Notes under the pieces: generated by a model
Database searches by the model: none
Told to the model about the DNA's origin: nothing
Seen by the model: the letters and a program-made list of their open reading frames with translations, nothing else
Made by a program: the position numbers and the translations under genes
Assembly: GCF_058153355.1 (NCBI RefSeq)
Contig: NZ_CM177019.1
Reading direction: 5' to 3' (one strand)
Length of the DNA stretch: 64,000 nt
Shown here: in pieces, positions 22,491 through 62,535 of the stretch
Layout of the letters: every line of letters begins with the position of its first letter
How positions within the stretch are numbered: position 1 is the stretch's first letter

Positions 22491-22552
22491 AAAAATCTAA
22501 GCTCAGAAAACGGATTAAAGTAAAAATCTAAGCTCAGAAAACGGATTAAAGT
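22491..22552 (+). repeat. perfect 31-bp tandem duplication (2 copies) in the leader of the IS110-family transposase
   Basis: AAAAATCTAAGCTCAGAAAACGGATTAAAGT at 22491..22521 and again at 22522..22552. Confidence 0.9.
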
Positions 22553-23808: not shown

Positions 23809-26012
23809 AAAATGAGAATAACCAGTTCCCTGAAGGCGACGTAGCCCGGTACAAGAGTAACCCACGTTAGCGCTTGGCGACGGCGGAACAAAGCTGATTC
23901 GCGACGTAAGAAAGTGGCAGGCTCATATGACGGACCTCTGTAATGCGGTATCCAACCCGCGAATATCAGCGTGATTCACCGTCGGATTTACTGCTACGTC
24001 GCCCTCAGGGAATTAAACCTAAAAAGAAAATCGTCAAAATTAGAGATTCCGGTTTGACACGGAAAGTCATATCAGCGTTAATGGAGAATCATATTGATGC
24101 TTATTTATTGGTGAGAACTACGTTCCATGGCAGGAGTTCATCAATACGGTTGGAAGGTTATTCCGGCAGTACGCTCAGGATATGGCGCAGATACGCTTCC
24201 GGATCAATGTCGTTCAGAAGGCAAGTGCCGATAAGCCCATACAACAGTGCACTGCGCTCGCCGCCGAAGAACATAAAGTTTTTATTTCCGAGACAGATGG
24301 CACAAAGGGCTTTTTCCGCGGCATTATGTCTGCCTCCGCCTGACCGTCAACACTGTAATAACAGAGTGCGCCCCACTGATTCAGTACACAGCTGAACCAT
24401 TCTCCCAGTCTGGATTTTTGGATAGCGTGGCATTTTTCTCCACCATGCATGCAGTGAGTCCAGTAACAGTTTGCTCTTCTTCTGCCTGACCACAAGATGT
24501 GCTGGACTGGTAAACGATGGGGATACCTGCTTACGCGAGAGCAATAAGTGGCTGGCCACAATTCTCGGTACAAAACTCTGCTGAATAGCAGCGATTTTCC
24601 CAGCGTGGTGCGTCGTTTGCATTTTACTGGTTCTAAGTTAACAATTATCTGTTCACTAATGACTACTCTAAAAACTTGTATCAGGACTATCACTTATTTA
24701 AGTGATATTGGTTGTCTGGAGATTCAGGGGGCCAGTCTATAAACTTTTTACAAAAGGATGAATGCAGAAGGTTACTCTAATGGCCAGAGTGATGACAATG
24801 ATGGTCAGACGTTGACCTGCAGAAACTGCATTTTAATTGGTCTATAAAGTCTGCAAGAGGAATCAGGGTCAGATCAGTGAGTCTTATCGCGGCCCGAAGC
24901 TATGACTGAAAGAAGGCTGGATACAGAATTGCAACAATTTGGCAATGTCAGAACACAGAAGCTTTGCAAGCAGGTGAAAGGTTATGTCTAGCAAAAGGAG
25001 TATATCAGAATACATCTACTGATGTACAAAACACAACAATAGCTTCATGATATATAAATACGTGATGACGAGTGGTACTCCGCATGGTTATTTAACTTCT
25101 CAGCACCACTAATGATCCTGAGCAACTTCGTATTTGGGCCATTGCCATGGAGTAGAAAGCTGTGTCTGAGAATGCAGAATTTGAGAAAAGAATTCGCTTT
25201 CTTGGAGAGCTTCTGAAAATGGCACGCTAACAACGTTTTGTTAAAAAATGTGAATCACTTGCCGGGGCTGCATTTTCTATTCGAGGAGAATGTTGACGTA
25301 GATATTACAGAAATCTCAGCGCATCAGGATAAACTGCTACCTTAGGTCAACCACCAAAAGAAAATACAATACGTCCAGTTTGTATGCCTTTAATAACACA
25401 TCTTTTAAATGTTGAAGAATTATCCCGCCTGCTGAAGAACGTTGCTCTGAGTGTGATAAACCTTTTTATTCTTGATGATGTCAGCGAGAAGATGGAATAT
25501 ATCCCCGACTGGGTCGTGGTTACCCGGTTAAACATCTGGTGGCGCTAATAAATCTGGCAAGTCACATTCTGTTGAATGCTGTGACAGTGCCTTACCGAGA
25601 GAGCGAAATTGTGGTGTTCTAGTGCATAGTCGCCACCATTCCGGATAATTCTATTGCGTTGTTTTACAAGTTCTTTTACAGCGCAGATCTGTCGCTGACG
25701 TTGAATCAATAGCCTGGATTTCAGAACACAATGCCCGTTTGCTGGTTGGTCCGGCAGTAGCATTAATTCATTATCTGAATGAAATGTGTCAATCCACAGA
25801 AACCGCTGTCAATGACACATTTTGTCGGACGTTAACACGAGAAAGTCTGGCTATTCCGTAATGCCATCTTATTTCGTAATGGATTGAGAATGCTGGATTT
25901 TTAATTATATTACGCGCAGTATTAATCGCGTAAATGTTTTGCGGTCAGCAACGGTGGGGGATCCATTGTTCTGTTCAATGAATACCATCATACATTTGAA
26001 TCAGGAGTCGGT

Positions 26013-26558
26013 ATGATGATTTTGGTGACGGGGGGCGCACGGAGCGGGAAGAGTCGCCACGCAGAGGCGCTTATTGGGGACTCTTCACAGGTTCTGTATA
26101 TCGCTACCTCGCAAATCCTTGATGATGAGATGGCTGCACGGATAGAACATCATCGGCAAGGCCGCCCGGCGCACTGGCGCACAGTGGAGCGCTGGCAACA
26201 TCTTGATGAATTAATTCATGCAGACATTAACCCGAATGAGGTTGTGTTGCTGGAATGCGTTACCACAATGGTGACTAATCTGTTGTTTGATTATGGCGGC
26301 GATAAAGACCCTGATGAATGGGATTATCAGGCGATGGAACAGGCGATTAATGCTGAGATTCAGTCGTTGATTGCTGCCTGCCAACGTTGCCCCGCAAAGG
26401 TTGTATTAGTGACTAACGAAGTGGGAATGGGGATTGTGCCGGAGAGTCGTCTGGCACGACATTTTCGTGATATTGCCGGGCGGGTAAATCAGCAGTTGGC
26501 CGCTGCGGCAAATGAAGTATGGCTGGTGGTTTCGGGTATTGGAGTAAAAATCAAATGA
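26013..26558 (+). CDS. cobU: adenosylcobinamide kinase / adenosylcobinamide-phosphate guanylyltransferase CobU
   Basis: 181-aa product with P-loop GGARSGKS; overlaps the cobS start by 4 bp. Confidence 0.95.
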
Positions 26559-27322
26559 GTAAATTATTTTGGGCGATGCTCTCATTTATTACGCGTCTGC
26601 CTGTACCGCGTCGCTGGTCCCAGGGACTGGATTTCGAGCATTATTCTCGCGGTATTATTACTTTTCCTTTAATTGGATTATTGCTTGGCGCGATTAGCGG
26701 GCTGGTCTTCATGGTGCTGCAGGCATGGTGTGGCGTACCACTGGCGGCACTGTTTAGCGTACTTGTGCTGGCGCTGATGACCGGGGGATTCCACCTGGAC
26801 GGCCTCGCCGATACCTGTGATGGCGTATTTTCTGCACGTAGCCGCGATCGCATGTTGGAAATCATGCGTGATAGCCGTTTAGGCACCCATGGCGGTCTGG
26901 CATTGATTTTTGTTGTACTGGCAAAGATTCTGGTATTAAGCGAGTTGGCTCTGCGTGGCGAACCGATCCTTGCATCGCTGGCGGCAGCATGTGCGGTCAG
27001 CCGCGGGACTGCCGCATTATTGATGTATCGTCATCGTTATGCGCGGGAAGAAGGGCTTGGCAATGTGTTCATTGGCAAAATTGATGGGCGACAAACCTGC
27101 GTCACACTCGGCTTAGCCGCTATTTTTGCTGCCGTATTATTGCCGGGTATGCATGGTGTGGCTGCTATGGTGGTGACGATGGTGGCGATTTTCATCCTCG
27201 GTCAGCTTCTCAAACGTACGCTGGGCGGGCAAACCGGCGATACGCTGGGAGCTGCTATAGAGCTTGGTGAACTGGTCTTCCTGCTGGCACTGCTATCTGG
27301 CACTGCTATAAAGAGACGTGAC
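26555..27322 (+). CDS. cobS: cobalamin 5'-phosphate synthase CobS; stop codon lost, frame runs on into cobT
   Basis: Matches recalled CobS to ...ELVFLLALL; a 13-bp tandem duplication at 27284..27309 shifts the frame past the expected TAA, so the ORF continues to 28402. Confidence 0.85.
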
Positions 27323-28402
27323 ATGCAAACACTTGCCGATTTACTGAATACGATCCCTGCTATCGATCCTGCCGCTATGTCGCGTGCACAACGGCATATT
27401 GACGGGTTACTCAAACCTGTTGGTAGCCTGGGAAGGCTGGAGGCGCTTGCCATACAACTGGCGGGAATGCCGGGGTTGAATGGCATACCGCATGTGGGCA
27501 AAAAAGCGGTACTGGTTATGTGTGCCGATCACGGCGTCTGGGAGGAAGGGGTCGCTATTTCCCCAAAAGAAGTGACAGCCATTCAGGCTGAAAATATGAC
27601 CCGCGGAACAACCGGCGTGTGTGTGCTGGCAGCACAAGCGGGCGCTAACGTCCACGTAGTTGATGTTGGTATTGATAGTGCTGAGCCTATCCCCGGGCTT
27701 ATCAACATGCGTGTCGCACGAGGTAGCGGCAATATTGCTTCAGCTCCGGCAATGAGTCGCCGTCAGGCTGAAAAGTTGCTTTTGGACGTCATATGTTATA
27801 CGCGGGAGCTGGCAAAAAACGGTGTCACGCTGTTTGGTGTAGGTGAACTGGGGATGGCAAACACGACACCGGCAGCGGCAATAGTCAGCACAATCACTGG
27901 CCGGGATCCTGAAGAAGTGGTTGGGATTGGCGCAAACCTGCCGACAGATAAACTGGCTAATAAAATTGATGTTGTGCGCCGGGCGATTACGTTGAATCAA
28001 CCAAATCCGCAGGATGGCGTTGATGTCCTGGCAAAAGTGGGTGGATTTGATTTGGTCGGAATGGCTGGCGTGATGTTAGGCGCTGCTTCCTGCGGTTTAC
28101 CCGTGTTGCTGGATGGATTTCTTTCTTATGCTGCCGCGCTCGCAGCCTGCCAGATGTCTCCTGCAATCAAACCGTATCTCATTCCTTCTCACCTGTCGGC
28201 AGAAAAAGGGGCGCGTATTGCGCTGTCGCATTTGGGGCTGGAGCCTTATCTCAATATGGAGATGCGTTTAGGTGAGGGGAGTGGCGCAGCTCTGGCGATG
28301 CCCATCATCGAAGCTGCCTGTGCGATATATAACAACATGGGCGAACTTGCTGCCAGTAATATTGTTCTACCGGGGAATACGACTTCTGATTTGAACAGTT
28401 AA
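27323..28402 (+). CDS. cobT: nicotinate-nucleotide--dimethylbenzimidazole phosphoribosyltransferase CobT
   Basis: 359-aa product from the ATG at 27323 ([15 protein letters not shown]...); in frame with the read-through cobS frame. Confidence 0.9.
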
Positions 28403-28466
28403 AAACGAAAAGTCTGATAAAAGCTATACTTAACGGATAGCTTTCGCGACTTAGGAAAGGGACATG

Positions 28467-29399
28467 ATGCGTCGTGTAAATATTTTTTGCTCATTTGCTC
28501 TGCTTTTTGCCAGCCAAAATAGCCTGGCGGTAACTTATCCATTACCTCCAGAGGGTAGCCGTTTAGTGGGGCAGTCGCTTACTGTAACTGTTCCTGATCA
28601 CAATACTCAGCCGCTGGAGACTTTTGCCGCACAATACGGGCAAGGGTTAAGTAATATGCTGGAAGCGAATCCGGGCGCTGATGTTTTTTTGCCGAAGCCT
28701 GGCTCACAACTCACCATTCCGCAGCAACTGATTTTGCCCGCCACTGTTCGTAAAGGGATTGTGGTTAACGTCGCTGAAATGCGTCTTTATTACTATCCGC
28801 CAGACAGTAATACAGTGGAAGTCTTTCCTATTGGTATCGGCCAGGCTGGGCGAGAAACCCCGCGTAACTGGGTGACTACCGTTGAACGTAAACAAGAAGC
28901 ACCAACCTGGACGCCAACGCCGAACACCCGGCGCGAATATGCGAAACGAGGGGAGAGTTTGCCCGCATTTGTTCCTGCGGGGCCCGATAACCCCATGGGG
29001 CTGTACGCGATTTATATTGGCAGGTTGTATGCCATCCACGGTACCAATGCCAATTTTGGTATTGGGCTCCGTGTAAGTCAGGGCTGTATTCGTCTGCGTA
29101 ATGACGATATCAAATATCTGTTTGATAATGTTCCTGTAGGCACTCGTGTACAAGTTATTGATCAGCCAGTGAAATACACAACGGAACCGGATGGTTCAAA
29201 GTGGCTGGAAGTTCATGAGCCGCTGTCGCGCAATCGTGCAGAATATGAGTCTGACCGAAAAGTGCCATTGCCGGTAACCCCATCTTTGCGGGCGTTTATC
29301 AACGGGCAAGAAGTTGATGTAAATCGCGCAAATGCTGCGTTGCAACGTCGATCGGGAATGCCTGTGCAAATTAGTTCTGGTTCAAGACAGATGTTTTAA
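28467..29399 (+). CDS. ldtA: L,D-transpeptidase LdtA (ErfK)
   Basis: Signal peptide, LysM-like N-terminus and YkuD catalytic motif HGT...SQGCIRL. Confidence 0.9.
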
Positions 29400-29420
29400 G
29401 AGCGTTGATAATTAGAAAGT

Positions 29421-29449
29421 AAAAAGCCTGCTCGAAAGCAGGCTTTTTT
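29421..29449. terminator. bidirectional rho-independent terminator between ldtA and tRNA-Asn
   Basis: Hairpin AGCCTGC-TCGAA-GCAGGCT flanked by an A-run and a T-run. Confidence 0.8.
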
Positions 29450-29454
29450 GAATT

Positions 29455-29530
29455 TGGCTCCTCTGACTGGACTCGAACCAGTGACATACGGATTAACAGT
29501 CCGCCGTTCTACCGACTGAACTACAGAGGA
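29455..29530 (-). tRNA. asnV: tRNA-Asn (GUU)
   Basis: 76-nt exact match to the E. coli tRNA-Asn sequence, with anticodon loop CUGUUAA and 3' CCA encoded. Confidence 0.97.
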
Positions 29531-31863: not shown

Positions 31864-31939
31864 TGGCTCCTCTGACTGGACTCGAACCAGTGACATACGG
31901 ATTAACAGTCCGCCGTTCTACCGACTGAACTACAGAGGA
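31864..31939 (-). tRNA. asnU: tRNA-Asn (GUU)
   Basis: 76-nt sequence identical to the other tRNA-Asn copies. Confidence 0.97.
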
Positions 31940-33687: not shown

Positions 33688-33763
33688 TCCTCTGTAGTTC
33701 AGTCGGTAGAACGGCGGACTGTTAATCCGTATGTCACTGGTTCGAGTCCAGTCAGAGGAGCCA
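33688..33763 (+). tRNA. asnW: tRNA-Asn (GUU)
   Basis: 76-nt TCCTCTGTAGTTCAGTCGGTAGAACGGCGGACTGTTAATCCGTATGTCACTGGTTCGAGTCCAGTCAGAGGAGCCA. Confidence 0.97.
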
Positions 33764-39899: not shown

Positions 39900-47888
<7,989 letters not shown>

Positions 47889-48200
47889 GCTTACCTTCCC
47901 TGAACGAGCTAACATAAATGCGCCCTTTCTAGCACAGCGAAAAAATATAAATCCTGATAGCAATATGATTGAAAATTAATAACTTTTCGTTAAGCAGTTT
48001 TGGGTGTGAGTTGCAAGAGGGGAGACTACTGAATAACTCAAGTTTTATAATCGAGGGGAAAATGGTGATGGTGTCCATAGCAAAACGCCCTCAACCATAA
48101 AGATCGAGGGCGCTTAAGATGTCAAAAACCCGCTATCCGTTAAAAAGCAATGCTCAACTAAGGTCAGTGACATTGCGCTAAAAAGCGAATTTTTAGAATT

Positions 48201-54843: not shown

Positions 54844-56667
54844 GTGTGTCACGAAGGAGTACTTATGGCAACAATGTGAAAATTGCAGCATAAGTTATCC
54901 ATGCTCTGAGGTGGGTGGAGGTGGGCCCTCCGGTCAGGGTTTACAGGAGCACTGACCAAACGACCCGGTGCTGCTTCATTCTAAGGAATGAGGTGGTGAG
55001 CGACTCGGGAAAAGGCAGAGATCTACTGTCACGTGGGGTTCGGGAAGCTGAACGAAAGTAAACTGTCCGATGAAGCATCGAAATCTTAGATGATGTCAAA
55101 ATGGGGCCGTACAGCCGTCCCCTGATAAGCGCAGAAGACACCTGCTTACTGACTGCGCGGCATCCGGTGTGAAGGCAGCAGGATCCCGGGCCAGACCATC
55201 TCAGGGAACGTGAGAACCTGTTTCCGGCACGTATCGGGAAACAGGGGCGGACCCATTCGTAGTAGTGATGAAAGATCTGTAATGGGTCTGGAGCGAAGGG
55301 ATGGGGATCACATTCATTGCAGAAGACACAACCCAAAAGGGGATGACGTAACTGATGCAACGAAAATCATTTGAAATACCAAAAGCACTGGTCTGGGCAT
55401 CATATCTGGATGTGCGTCGCAACAAGGGAGCCCCCGGATGCGACGGGCAGACTTTGAAAATGTTCGACCAGCAACGTGATGGCAATCTATACAAGATCTG
55501 GAACCGGCTATGTTCGGGAACATGGTTTCCGCCACCAGTGCTGGAAAAACGGATCCCGAAGTCGAATGGCAAGGAACGCATTCTGGGGATCCCAACAGTA
55601 TCCGATCGAATTGCTCAGGGAGCGATAAAACTTTTCATGGAAGAAAAGCTTGACCCGATTTTCCATGCTGATTCATATGGTTACCGACCAGGCAAATCAG
55701 CTCATGACGCTCTGAAACAATGTGCCATCCGGTGCTGGCGTTATAGCTGGATACTGGAAGTGGACATCAGTGCGTTTTTCGACCATGTGAGACATGATCT
55801 GGTGCTCAAAGCTCTGGAACACCACGGGATGCCTAAATGGGTCATCCTGTACTGTCGACGCTGGATGGAAGCGCCAATGCAGAGTTGTGAAAATGGAGAA
55901 TTAATAACCCGAACACGAGGCACTCCGCAGGGCGGGGTCATTAGTCCACTACTTGCTAACTTGTTCCTTCACTATGCATTTGATTTGTGGATGGAAAGAG
56001 AATATCGGGGGGTACCGTTTGAGAGGTACGCTGACGATATTGTAGTACATTGTTCACGAATGAGTGATGCAACAAGGCTGAAGAACAGGTTATCGGAGCG
56101 CTTCTCGGAAGTCGGGCTGGTCCTGAATGCAGGGAAAACGAATATCGCCTACATTGACACGTTTAAAAGGAGAAACGTCGCAACGAGTTTCACCTTTCTC
56201 GGATATGACTTCAAAGTGCGTACGCTGAAGAATTTCAAAGGCGAACTGTACCGAAAATGCATGCCGGGTGCGTCAAATGCAGCAATGCGCAAAATAACAG
56301 AAACAATCAAGAAGTGGCGTATACATCGCTCAACAGCTGAGAGTTTGCTGGATTTTGCGAGGCGCTACAATGCGATAGTGAGAGGCTGGATCGAGTACTA
56401 CGGAAAGTTCTGGTCCAGAAATTTCAACTATCGACTGTGGAGTGCAATGCAGTCACGTCTGCTCAAGTGGATGCAGTCTAAATACAGACTTTCGAACCGG
56501 AAGGCTCAGCGAAAGCTGACGCTGGTAAGGAAGGAGTATCCGAAGCTATTTGTTCACTGGTATTTACTACGTGCATCAAATGAGTGATCAAGAGCCGTAT
56601 GACGCGAGAGTGTCACGTACGGTTCCGTGAGCAGCCGGGGAGTGAAATTCTCTCCGGCTGACTCGAC
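54844..56667 (+). mobile_element. bacterial group II intron (1824 bp) in sense orientation within IS66 tnpC
   Basis: Starts GTGTG immediately after the exon 1 homology and ends ...AC before exon 2; domain V-like GAGCCGTATG...CACGTACGGTTC at 56592..56625; contains the RT/maturase ORF. Confidence 0.75.
55355..56587 (+). CDS. group II intron reverse transcriptase/maturase (no endonuclease domain evident)
   Basis: RT motifs including GTPQGGVISPLLANLFL and YADDIVVH, plus a maturase X domain (RGWIEYYG); 410 aa. Confidence 0.85.
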   Translation: MQRKSFEIPKALVWASYLDVRRNKGAPGCDGQTLKMFDQQRDGNLYKIWNRLCSGTWFPPPVLEKRIPKSNGKERILGIPTVSDRIAQGAIKLFMEEKLDPIFHADSYGYRPGKSAHDALKQCAIRCWRYSWILEVDISAFFDHVRHDLVLKALEHHGMPKWVILYCRRWMEAPMQSCENGELITRTRGTPQGGVISPLLANLFLHYAFDLWMEREYRGVPFERYADDIVVHCSRMSDATRLKNRLSERFSEVGLVLNAGKTNIAYIDTFKRRNVATSFTFLGYDFKVRTLKNFKGELYRKCMPGASNAAMRKITETIKKWRIHRSTAESLLDFARRYNAIVRGWIEYYGKFWSRNFNYRLWSAMQSRLLKWMQSKYRLSNRKAQRKLTLVRKEYPKLFVHWYLLRASNE

Positions 56668-56852: not shown

Positions 56853-58796
56853 TCAATACGGTTCTGGCGAGCCGCTTACGTTTAATCGGGAAATCTCATA
56901 TTTTCGGTTCATCATTAATGGCAGAAGGAAGCGTTGATGCTGTTGACGAGAAATTTCACCAGCACGGAGCAGTTTTTCTAGGTTGCGTAACTGGAAACCC
57001 GCATGCGCCATATCATCATTGTTCTCTGTATTGGCCTGAAAAGCGGAAAAGTAATAATGCCGTGATTCCAGCAAATATAAACAGGTCAGATCCATATTTT
57101 TGCCAGATTCAGGCAGGCTGAAATCCAGATTCACACCATTCGTCGCAGAGGCGGTCTGAGTCAGCACAATGACAATACGCCGGGAGGCAAATGCGGCCTG
57201 ATAAGCATCACTAAAGCCCTTTTTCTTCTGACATTCTGCGGTTAACAGACAAATCAGCGCAGGCTCATTATGTATGCTCACTGGGATAAACACATCAGCA
57301 AAATTTTTTAGTAGAGGATCATCAGATAAAGGTTGTTCCATTTTTAACCATGCGAGGTATTCTCTACTTTGTGTTGCTATTGTAGTGGTAAGCCATTTTC
57401 TTAAATAGGCTATGGAATTCACGAAAGCAAGATGCCCCCGGTGTTGAGGTCTTTTTCCCGCAAGATCCAATACATTAAGCAATTTTAGCAGTATATTTTT
57501 TCGATATTCTGATTCGAAATCTGATGAGGGGTCATCGCCATTCTGGAAAAAATCGGGGGCTAGCGAAGCGAGCAGATCAACACAATGCGGGTTATTCTTT
57601 ATGCTATTGAAATCTTGAATCTCAGCATTCAGTTGTGTGTTTCTGATATTTTCTTTGCTGTTATTGATCTCTTCAATAGCTAAATACTGCAACTGGAAAT
57701 CATCAGCCGTCTGGACATAAGGTATCGGTTCTTTAAACCACTCGACAGGTCGTTTTTCAAAAGTTGTTCCCAGAAAACTTTGTGTAACAGCAGGGTTGCG
57801 TGCTTCTGCAATATAACGAAGAGCTGAATTAATCCACCGGACATCGAAGTGATTACAGGCTCTTTCAATATATGACGTAGCCGACAGTGCAAAGACAAGA
57901 TTACGACTGGCGAGAGAAAGCAGCAGACCTTCTGCCGTCGTGGGCAGAAAGGCACGTTTGATCTGTATCCGTAACGGATCGATATCCGTATCTGAGACAT
58001 TCTGTTTCAGCAACCAATTGGTCAAGCCAAAAATACTGGCATGAGTATTTGGCAAAATATTACTTTTCCTTAATTCCCGTAGTTCCGGCAGGTCAGTACG
58101 CGGTAACAAAAATCGGGACATATTGGGCAGGGTTGAGCCGTAGTATGAAGGCCTGTAATCATTAACGGGGTCGAACAGAAGTCGGGTTAACTTTTTAATG
58201 TATTCATACGCTTCATCTTCACTTGCAGTCAGGTCGGTCAACATTAGGCTAAACTGTCGAATGAATTTTTCCATCAAGCGTAAAAAATCACTGATGTCGA
58301 TAGTCTGATCGCTATCCTGAAGCGGAGAGTCTGGCCTGATAATTTCGTATCCATGTTCCGCTTTCCGCATAATAAGCCGTTCACTGGTCACCAGTTGATC
58401 GGAACGGAATAAATAATGCTCACCAAAGGGTTTATTATCCAGATATTGCTGAAGAGGAATAACCAGCGATCTGGCATGTGTTAAATCAGCATGTTTTTCT
58501 GTTAATGCACTATCCAGATCATTAATAAATTTTTCTAGACGTTCACGGATCATAGGTGCAGGTTCCATTTCAACATACTGCATACGTTGTAGTAATCTGC
58601 GTCCCCCGTCGAGCAACTGACCCAGACACTCAGGTGGTTCCTGAACCCATTGCGCCTGTGCCAGATACTCTTGTAATACCTCAGACTGGTAATCAAATTC
58701 ATCGATGAAAATGATGTAATTACGCAGCTCTTTGCTGGACATTTTTACTTTGCGACGCCCATCGTAAAACGATGAAACCATCTTTTGAGTCGTCAT
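56853..58796 (-). CDS. large hypothetical protein; C-terminal 8 codons and stop supplied by the IS66 terminus
   Basis: 647-aa ORF; N-terminal IIFIDEFD resembles a Walker B / DExx motif; the last codons (SGSPEPY) are encoded within the IS66 right inverted repeat. Confidence 0.5.
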   Translation of the reverse strand: MTTQKMVSSFYDGRRKVKMSSKELRNYIIFIDEFDYQSEVLQEYLAQAQWVQEPPECLGQLLDGGRRLLQRMQYVEMEPAPMIRERLEKFINDLDSALTEKHADLTHARSLVIPLQQYLDNKPFGEHYLFRSDQLVTSERLIMRKAEHGYEIIRPDSPLQDSDQTIDISDFLRLMEKFIRQFSLMLTDLTASEDEAYEYIKKLTRLLFDPVNDYRPSYYGSTLPNMSRFLLPRTDLPELRELRKSNILPNTHASIFGLTNWLLKQNVSDTDIDPLRIQIKRAFLPTTAEGLLLSLASRNLVFALSATSYIERACNHFDVRWINSALRYIAEARNPAVTQSFLGTTFEKRPVEWFKEPIPYVQTADDFQLQYLAIEEINNSKENIRNTQLNAEIQDFNSIKNNPHCVDLLASLAPDFFQNGDDPSSDFESEYRKNILLKLLNVLDLAGKRPQHRGHLAFVNSIAYLRKWLTTTIATQSREYLAWLKMEQPLSDDPLLKNFADVFIPVSIHNEPALICLLTAECQKKKGFSDAYQAAFASRRIVIVLTQTASATNGVNLDFSLPESGKNMDLTCLYLLESRHYYFSAFQANTENNDDMAHAGFQLRNLEKLLRAGEISRQQHQRFLLPLMMNRKYEISRLNVSGSPEPY

Positions 58797-59572: not shown

Positions 59573-60075
59573 ATTTCACCTCATCCGTGTCAGGTTATCG
59601 AAGAGTAGAATTTCAGCAAATTCATGTTACACCGAACGGGTATCATTTCAATGTTTAATAATAATTTCCCCTTATAAAACAACGCTTATAATACATTCGC
59701 AGGTCAGATGATTTATCGGTGTGTTATTTGTTTGAATTTGGTGTTGTGGTTTTCTTTTTTTAACAATCTTCGATCTTCCTTCCACGACTTCCCCTTGCCG
59801 TTTTCAACCGAAAGCGGTATCTTTCACTTGCACCTGCAAAATCAGGTGCCGGGATTGGAACCCCGAAATGTAACCATACTGGCGACACGTGACGCGTCTG
59901 CGTCTTTTTTTATGTCGCGCGCTTAGCTACACCAAAATTATGGTGGGCTGGGCGGGGGCACCGTAAGGTGCGCCGGTTCCAGTATGGCCGGTAGTTCCAA
60001 CCTCGTTCAGTCCACCACCCATGAGATTGGAACCTCTGGTGGTGGTTTTCAAACCACATACTGGAGGCTGCCTTT

Positions 60076-62244: not shown

Positions 62245-62535
62245 CTCACGGCTGGAGTCTGACACCGCCTTTTCAGGCCATTTACCTATAAGGAGAACAT
62301 GAATCGATACCGAGGCGGATCCGGACGATCCGGGGGATAACCCGCGCAAGCGGGCGGCTGCTCAGAGAGCACAACCGAAGCCCCACCACACCTCAACGGC
62401 TGCCGCCCCGGCGCTCAGGTATCGTTCGCAGCCCCGACAAAAAAACAGGGGCTATCGGCCTGTGCGCCGGGGAAAGCTGTATCAGTGTTGGTTTTTTGGG
62501 GGATGAGTTTGCGGCAATCATGAAAAGGGGAATGT

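Follow-up and report, generated by a model that had tools for sequence, protein, structure and literature searches.

A strain-private 13-bp tandem duplication places cobS and cobT of an Escherichia coli-type chromosome in a single reading frame

In most Escherichia coli genomes the cobalamin genes cobS and cobT are separate, but in the segment analyzed here a single open frame runs from the start of cobS to the end of cobT. The locus raises the question of whether this frame represents a bifunctional enzyme or a mutational lesion that happens to join two intact genes. Throughout, the window refers to the entire 64,000-nt stretch of DNA that was analyzed, an E. coli-type chromosome segment with several IS elements. 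In E. coli, the sole role of cobUST is the conversion of imported cobinamide to cobalamin.

The joined frame depends on a short repeat at the end of cobS. An earlier note on this DNA had described the 13-mer CTGGCACTGCTAT as occurring twice in tandem, which can be seen directly in the window sequence, with copy 1 at 27284..27296 (+) and copy 2 at 27297..27309 (+). Tandem Repeats Finder reported a period of 13, 2.0 copies, 100% matches, and no indels. Positions 27281-27328 read CTG CTG GCA CTG CTA TCT GGC ACT GCT ATA AAG AGA CGT GAC ATG CAA. The final T of copy 1 is the first base of the ancestral TAA stop codon and now begins TCT (Ser248), while copy 2 is extra relative to every other genome examined. 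The bases flanking the repeat do not match (G at 27283 versus T at 27296; A at 27310 versus C at 27297) and so fail to extend it, which leaves exactly two copies without microhomology at their ends. About 0.001 perfect 13-mer tandems would be expected in 64 kb, and none occurred in any of 100 trinucleotide-block shuffles. Chance does not explain the repeat. Slippage between flanking microhomologies was ruled out as the mechanism because the repeat boundaries have no bases in common and the internal CTGCT repeats are spaced 9 nt apart, not 13.

The effect of the duplication on the reading frame is evident from comparison with single-copy loci. It had been proposed that one copy would restore CTG CTA TAA and end CobS at 247 aa. 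This is how the gene ends in the K-12-derived strain HST04, in O157:H7, in Nissle 1917, and in an O121 genome annotated by PGAP (L001). In single-copy genomes cobT begins 11 nt past the cobS stop, and the offset from the start of cobS to the start of cobT is 755 nt (2 mod 3). Adding 13 nt brings the offset to 768 nt, so that cobS and cobT fall in frame. Both the sequence and the list of open reading frames bear out the further claim that the cobS frame passes the cobT ATG at 27323 and stops at 28402. The predicted length of the product needed revision, however. The earlier note gave 627 aa, and the underlying open frame (26519..28402) does exist, but that figure counts from an in-frame ATG inside cobU. 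Records of E. coli instead annotate cobS from position 26555, where its ATG shares an ATGA overlap with the stop of cobU, and this gives a product of 615 aa. For a public contig of identical sequence (SRR31441161_127; L011), a gene caller likewise found a 615-aa gene with the domains PF02654 and PF02277.

The fused frame (26555..28402, +) consists of 615 codons plus a stop and encodes residues 1-247 of CobS, the nonapeptide SGTAIKRRD, and residues 1-359 of CobT. Its first part is the complete CobS coding sequence (codons 1-247; 26555..27295, +), unchanged relative to WP_001297350.1. The linker of nine new codons (27296..27322, +) is made up of copy 2 and the former 11-nt intergenic spacer, now read in the cobS frame. 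Compared with single-copy loci, the ancestral cobS stop TAA (27309..27311, +) is still there, but it lies in the +1 frame and goes unread. The motif AAGAG (27311..27315, +), which we infer to be a weak Shine-Dalgarno (SD)-like element of cobT, is unchanged and stands 7 nt before the ATG. Internal to the fused frame, the complete cobT gene for NaMN:DMB phosphoribosyltransferase (27323..28402, +) has 359 codons plus a stop and encodes a protein identical to WP_001193786.1. The first gene of the cobUST operon, cobU (adenosylcobinamide kinase/guanylyltransferase; 26013..26558, +), is intact, and its DNA is identical to that of the PGAP-annotated cobU of the O121 genome.

Both enzyme sequences are fully intact in the fusion. 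Residues 1-246 align with positions 1-241 of the 241-position NCBIfam profile for CobS (TIGR00317) at 302 bits, against a cutoff of 110. Residues 257-604 align with positions 1-347 of the 350-position CobT profile NF000996 at 468 bits (cutoff, 306), and a second CobT profile, TIGR03160, scored 393 bits (cutoff, 319). The CobT half also matches solved structures of Salmonella enterica CobT (1jh8 and others) with an E value of 5.7e-179. Of the CobS motifs defined in previous work (PMC8092220), both HxDxxxDxxD (in a stretch of 11 residues) and GxxGDxxG (as GGQTGDTLG) are found in the translation. What has been lost is the free C terminus that CobS has after its last helix at 247 aa, since 368 more residues now follow Leu247.

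To place the allele among its relatives, we compared the window with the O121 genome over positions 25900-29500. The two sequences differ by the 13-nt insert and by one single-nucleotide polymorphism (SNP) at 29154 in ldtA. The check that the earlier note had called for, against other E. coli cobS-cobT junctions, found the duplication in none of 5,413 loci. Specifically, of the 5,426 complete E. coli genomes queried with a 131-nt junction sequence, 5,413 contained the locus; the top identity was 90.1%, which corresponds to a 13-nt gap, and no match reached 95%. A 1,848-nt query covering cobS-cobT gave a top identity of 99.3% (1,835/1,848), and the full-length matches listed all span 1,835 nt. 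The 26-mer junction had no exact matches in GTDB species representatives (one genome per species) and none in JGI metagenome contigs. Exact look-up in a collection of 15 billion proteins found neither the 615-aa nor the 627-aa product. A contig index of 153 billion gene positions contained the exact 615-aa product just once, on Logan SRR31441161_127, whose 4,770 bp match window positions 24711-29480 at 100% identity. A look-up by the neighboring LdtA gave the same picture, with separate 247-aa and 359-aa genes at 9 of 10 loci and the 615-aa gene at the tenth, which is again SRR31441161_127.

Close relatives carry the single-copy allele. Two of them, an 8.9-kb locus from GCA_015332025.1 (L005) and one from SRR8656992 (L012), show no mismatch to the window, so that the 13-nt gap is the sole difference. 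In addition, a rare 647-aa protein encoded at 56856-58796 of the window is on record from SRR8656992 alone. This uniquely shared protein implies that the single-copy allele is carried by a strain very close to that of the window. We also modeled the same duplication in the K-12, O157:H7, and Nissle alleles, and the resulting products were found on no contig, which provides no evidence for a recurrent hot spot. The features of a spontaneous tandem duplication were all found, namely a perfect head-to-tail copy, relatives with a single copy, and a length that shifts the frame (13 mod 3 = 1). Judged from these sequence comparisons, the duplication is a derived, strain-private, and very recent mutation and not a feature of a lineage.

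To look for natural fusions of the two proteins, we searched with the window product against 1.84 billion cluster representatives, which returned 19,856 hits, and examined the best 150, down to 228 bits. Partners in the long hits were identified by local phmmer with separate CobS, CobT, and CobU parts and with NCBIfam. Among the best 150 of 19,856 hits, CobT was joined to CobU (in either order), BluB (in either order), or a CbiR-like domain, and also to a corrinoid-type ABC ATPase, an ADH-like (alcohol-dehydrogenase-like) domain, or a second CobT. The sole CobS/CobT fusion among these 150 was P0122, in which CobT is followed by a partial CobS. The order seen in the window, CobS then CobT, occurred in none of the best 150 of 19,856 hits, and very distant fusions below 228 bits may exist. 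Among clusters at 90% identity, there was no 615-aa protein, and the only hybrid of CobS and CobT was P0152, a 367-aa singleton from Shigella sonnei. A literature search for CobS-CobT fusions returned nothing relevant, as the matches concerned the cobaltochelatase CobS/CobT or other fusions.

The window fusion resembles natural multidomain CobT proteins in that CobT and another enzyme of lower-ligand or nucleotide-loop assembly are joined in one polypeptide. It differs from them in other respects. Except in P0122, the identified partners of CobT in natural fusions are soluble, although the N-terminal regions of some long hits fell outside this characterization. Where the natural partner is CobS, CobT is N-terminal and would lie on the cytoplasmic N-in side, whereas in the window CobT follows the periplasmic C terminus of CobS. 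Moreover, each natural fusion represents a protein cluster, while the window fusion is a singleton. A conserved bifunctional fusion is supported neither by occurrence in several lineages nor by the order of domains relative to topology. The S. sonnei protein is another one-off lesion that joins cobS and cobT in frame within the E. coli/Shigella group. Unlike the window allele, which keeps both enzymes complete, P0152 arose by an internal deletion that leaves CobS residues 1-140 and approximately the last 229 residues of CobT, so that both enzymes are destroyed. As P0152 illustrates, the cobUST operon sporadically acquires lesions in the E. coli/Shigella group.

The ordinary E. coli cobUST operon (WP_001297350.1 and WP_001193786.1) offers the most direct comparison. 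It has the same gene order, both of the same proteins, and the same flanking DNA, with one SNP in 3.6 kb besides the insert. By comparison, the window has 13 extra bases ending cobS, a stop that is out of frame, and a single 615-codon frame. Like other tandem-duplication mutations of bacterial genomes that, through frameshift or stop loss, give rise to pseudogenes or to gene fusions by read-through, the window allele involves a perfect short head-to-tail copy whose length is not a multiple of three and which changes the frame downstream. Unlike the usual lesions of this type, it costs no residue, and the product has two cleanly joined domains instead of being truncated or scrambled. It also departs from the usual tandem duplication in that its repeat boundaries lack microhomology.

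Whether a fused CobT could function depends on where the C terminus of CobS resides. E. coli CobS has been assigned an Nin/Cout topology on the basis that CobS with a C-terminal BlaM conferred ampicillin resistance; a C-terminal EGFP fusion gave weak fluorescence (PMC4604451). In a model of S. enterica CobS derived from PhoA and LacZ fusions, loops 2, 4, and 6 are cytoplasmic, and loop 6 contains the GxxGDxxG motif (PMC8092220). Cytoplasmic loops 2, 4, and 6 imply seven helices, the seventh ending in the periplasm. In our hydropathy scan with counts of K and R, the hydrophobic segments of CobS agree with the published N-in/C-out topology, and the K/R-rich N terminus and two long loops (78-112 and 159-182) are interspersed with short turns that carry no charge. 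CobT, meanwhile, is a soluble cytoplasmic enzyme that uses NaMN and whose product CobS uses up on its cytoplasmic side (PMC8092220). Because the C terminus of CobS is reported to be periplasmic, an attached CobT moiety would be topologically misplaced. The CobS-BlaM and CobS-EGFP proteins (PMC4604451) resemble the window product in carrying a folded soluble domain on the C terminus of CobS and thus predict the location of CobT. They differ in being laboratory constructs with an N-terminal D94N partner, whereas the passenger in the window is a cytoplasmic dimeric enzyme preceded by a KRR linker.

Taken together, we think that this strain-private 13-bp duplication probably causes read-through from cobS into cobT and amounts to a neutral or slightly deleterious lesion or to early gene decay. 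The last codons of cobS, including the first base of TAA, would have been copied in tandem by a spontaneous event, and the 13-nt insertion produces a +1 shift that by chance equals the offset between cobS and cobT. Ribosomes that initiate at cobS would then miss termination, translate the nine new codons followed by the whole of cobT, and release a 615-aa protein. The CobT moiety of this protein might cross into the periplasm, where it would be separated from NaMN and from the CobS active site on the cytoplasmic side. Alternatively, the linker with its KRR cluster might block insertion of the last helix and thereby damage CobS. Either way, the published topology makes the fused CobT unlikely to contribute. 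Useful CobT would then come only from its own start at the unchanged cobT SD and ATG, and independent initiation from the unchanged AAGAG, 7-nt spacer, and ATG does appear plausible from the sequence. Such initiation would have to proceed without termination-reinitiation coupling from the cobS stop 11 nt upstream, and read-through ribosomes would also cross the cobT start site. The most likely net effect would be that conversion of cobinamide to cobalamin is reduced or lost. Complete B12 can be imported, and the B12-independent enzyme MetE bypasses MetH. Given these two routes, cobinamide salvage is dispensable, and its impairment would be nearly neutral. On the best reading, the fusion does not represent an evolved bifunctional CobS-CobT enzyme.

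Several observations leave room for a milder outcome. The mutation could be phenotypically silent if CobS works despite its extension and the internal SD and ATG yield enough free CobT, leaving salvage unaffected; we regard this as possible but rather unlikely. Every residue of CobS and CobT is intact, and the SD-like motif, the spacer, and the ATG of cobT are as in the wild type. With the ribosome-binding site of cobT untouched, free CobT may be made at near-normal levels and the mutation may be silent, contrary to our main explanation. RNA folding predicted that the duplication permits a new hairpin pairing the AAGAG of cobT with an upstream GGUCUU. However, the predicted accessibility of the cobT start differed by a small amount (0.54 for the single copy versus 0.37-0.54 for the duplicated allele) that varied with the size of the folding window. 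In addition, CobS bearing a C-terminal BlaM or EGFP is still produced (PMC4604451), as is CobS with a C-terminal S tag (PMC8749415). That C-terminal extensions are tolerated in production suggests that the CobS moiety may stay active, which also speaks against a damaging effect. Set against a silent mutation are the loss of termination-reinitiation coupling at the cobS stop and the possibility that read-through ribosomes occlude the internal start of cobT. Furthermore, the extension is 368 aa long and places a KRR cluster right after the last helix on the periplasmic side, in violation of the positive-inside rule, and elevated or perturbed CobS destabilizes the membrane (PMC8749415).

The fusion might instead be a functional and even advantageous enzyme, tethered to the membrane, in which alpha-ribazole phosphate passes from CobT to CobS. 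One substrate of CobS is made by CobT, a membrane-anchored multienzyme complex that includes both has been proposed (PMC8092220; PMC8749415), natural fusions of CobT to several other B12 enzymes exist, and the KRR linker could in principle hold the CobT moiety in the cytoplasm. Yet the C terminus of CobS is periplasmic, and a cytoplasmic CobT would require that the last CobS helix, which follows the GxxGDxxG loop, not span the membrane. The one CobS/CobT fusion in the top 150 representatives starts with CobT and ends with CobS, an arrangement that fits an N-in membrane protein, and the window allele, itself a singleton, shows no evidence of having spread or recurred. We therefore consider a functional fusion very improbable. 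A further proposal is that a CobS-CobT polypeptide is expressed and that either the KRR linker keeps CobT cytoplasmic or CobS tolerates a periplasmic passenger while separate CobT is made. This too seems very improbable to us; if true, however, the window would encode a de novo membrane-tethered enzyme for two steps of nucleotide-loop assembly and would provide a natural test both of the proposed CobS-anchored multienzyme complex and of a C-out protein carrying a large C-terminal addition. It is equally hard to credit that the duplication is a sequencing or assembly artifact, or a mutation from laboratory culture that is missing from the natural population. Only one other data set, SRR31441161, has the duplication, it may derive from the same isolate, and all other relatives lack the second copy. 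But a perfect 13-bp tandem copy outside a homopolymer is atypical as an error of any current platform, and the separate Logan assembly of SRR31441161 shows the identical junction, although this run may be the window genome's own read set. A mutation acquired in culture would, moreover, remain a real mutation.

Under our preferred explanation, read-through from cobS caused by the duplication, the locus is best annotated as a loss of the cobS stop with cobS-cobT read-through, arising from a 13-bp duplication; the label of bifunctional enzyme would be inappropriate. Conversion of cobinamide to B12 may fail in this strain, which would be relevant only to phenotypes of B12 salvage, such as those involving MetH or the use of ethanolamine when corrinoids are incomplete. 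The allele could also act as a clone-specific marker. On a small scale, it illustrates in nature how a single short duplication can give rise to a clean two-domain gene fusion, and its domain order, which topology disfavors, may help to explain why CobS-then-CobT was absent among the natural fusions examined. Nonetheless, the duplication is unremarkable as a spontaneous mutation, belongs to a known class, and affects a dispensable operon in a single strain; it matters little beyond annotation.

To the left of the cobUST operon, positions 1-22523 form a CP4-44-like integrative island with IS100, ISCro1 (IS66 family), a dynamin-family protein, an RdcB-family regulator, a patatin-like phospholipase, an antirestriction protein, and a cbeA/cbtA toxin-antitoxin pair. 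The island is 99.4 to 99.5% identical to those of the best-matching E. coli genomes, and 80% or more of its length is present in 1,635 genomes. After the island, the order is an ISSso6-like IS110 element, cobUST, ldtA, nac, cbl, yeeO, and three tRNA-Asn genes. Besides the repeat in cobS, the window contains only one perfect tandem with a period of 10 to 60, at 22491-22552, where the 31-bp unit AAAAATCTAAGCTCAGAAAACGGATTAAAGT occurs twice. The ISSso6-like IS110-family element follows this repeat directly on its right; the match of that element to another locus (L002) starts at 22548. In E. coli WCHEC040047 (L013), the unit occurs at least once, at the end of the locus retrieved.

Upstream of cobU, at approximately 25521-25861 (+), the annotations of O121 and FDAARGOS_943 show a fragment of an IS4-family transposase and a fragment of a "cobalamin biosynthesis protein" gene. 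These fragments look like the remnant of lost upstream cob/cbi genes. Downstream of ldtA, there are three tRNA-Asn(GTT) genes within 4.3 kb (29455-29530, -; 31864-31939, -; 33688-33763, +), which have equal Rfam tRNA scores, as would be expected of identical copies. The cobUST-bearing short-read contigs stop at 29480, within the first of these genes.

Positions 39600-64000 are a variable region, of which complete E. coli genomes cover 62% at most; the best are LF82 and NRG 857C, at 95.4% identity. With annotated neighbors that include an ATP-dependent nuclease and a UvrD-type helicase, the region is possibly a defense island. An uninterrupted 2,687-aa open reading frame at 39900-47963 (-) has as its counterpart in FDAARGOS_943 a frameshifted pseudogene of an Ig-like-domain (YeeJ-type) adhesin. 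The exact 2,687-aa protein was not found in the contig index, although the start taken for this frame may differ from that chosen by a gene caller. A group II intron at 54917-56667 (+) was recognized by Rfam from domains D1-D4 (54917-55033) and the 3' catalytic domain (56590-56667), and a 410-aa open reading frame between them (55355-56587) is presumably the intron-encoded protein. Farther downstream, isrK and a C4 antisense RNA of the P4/satellite-prophage type adjoin at 59830-60022 (+), followed 2.3 kb later by an EFASI RNA at 62299-62428 (+).
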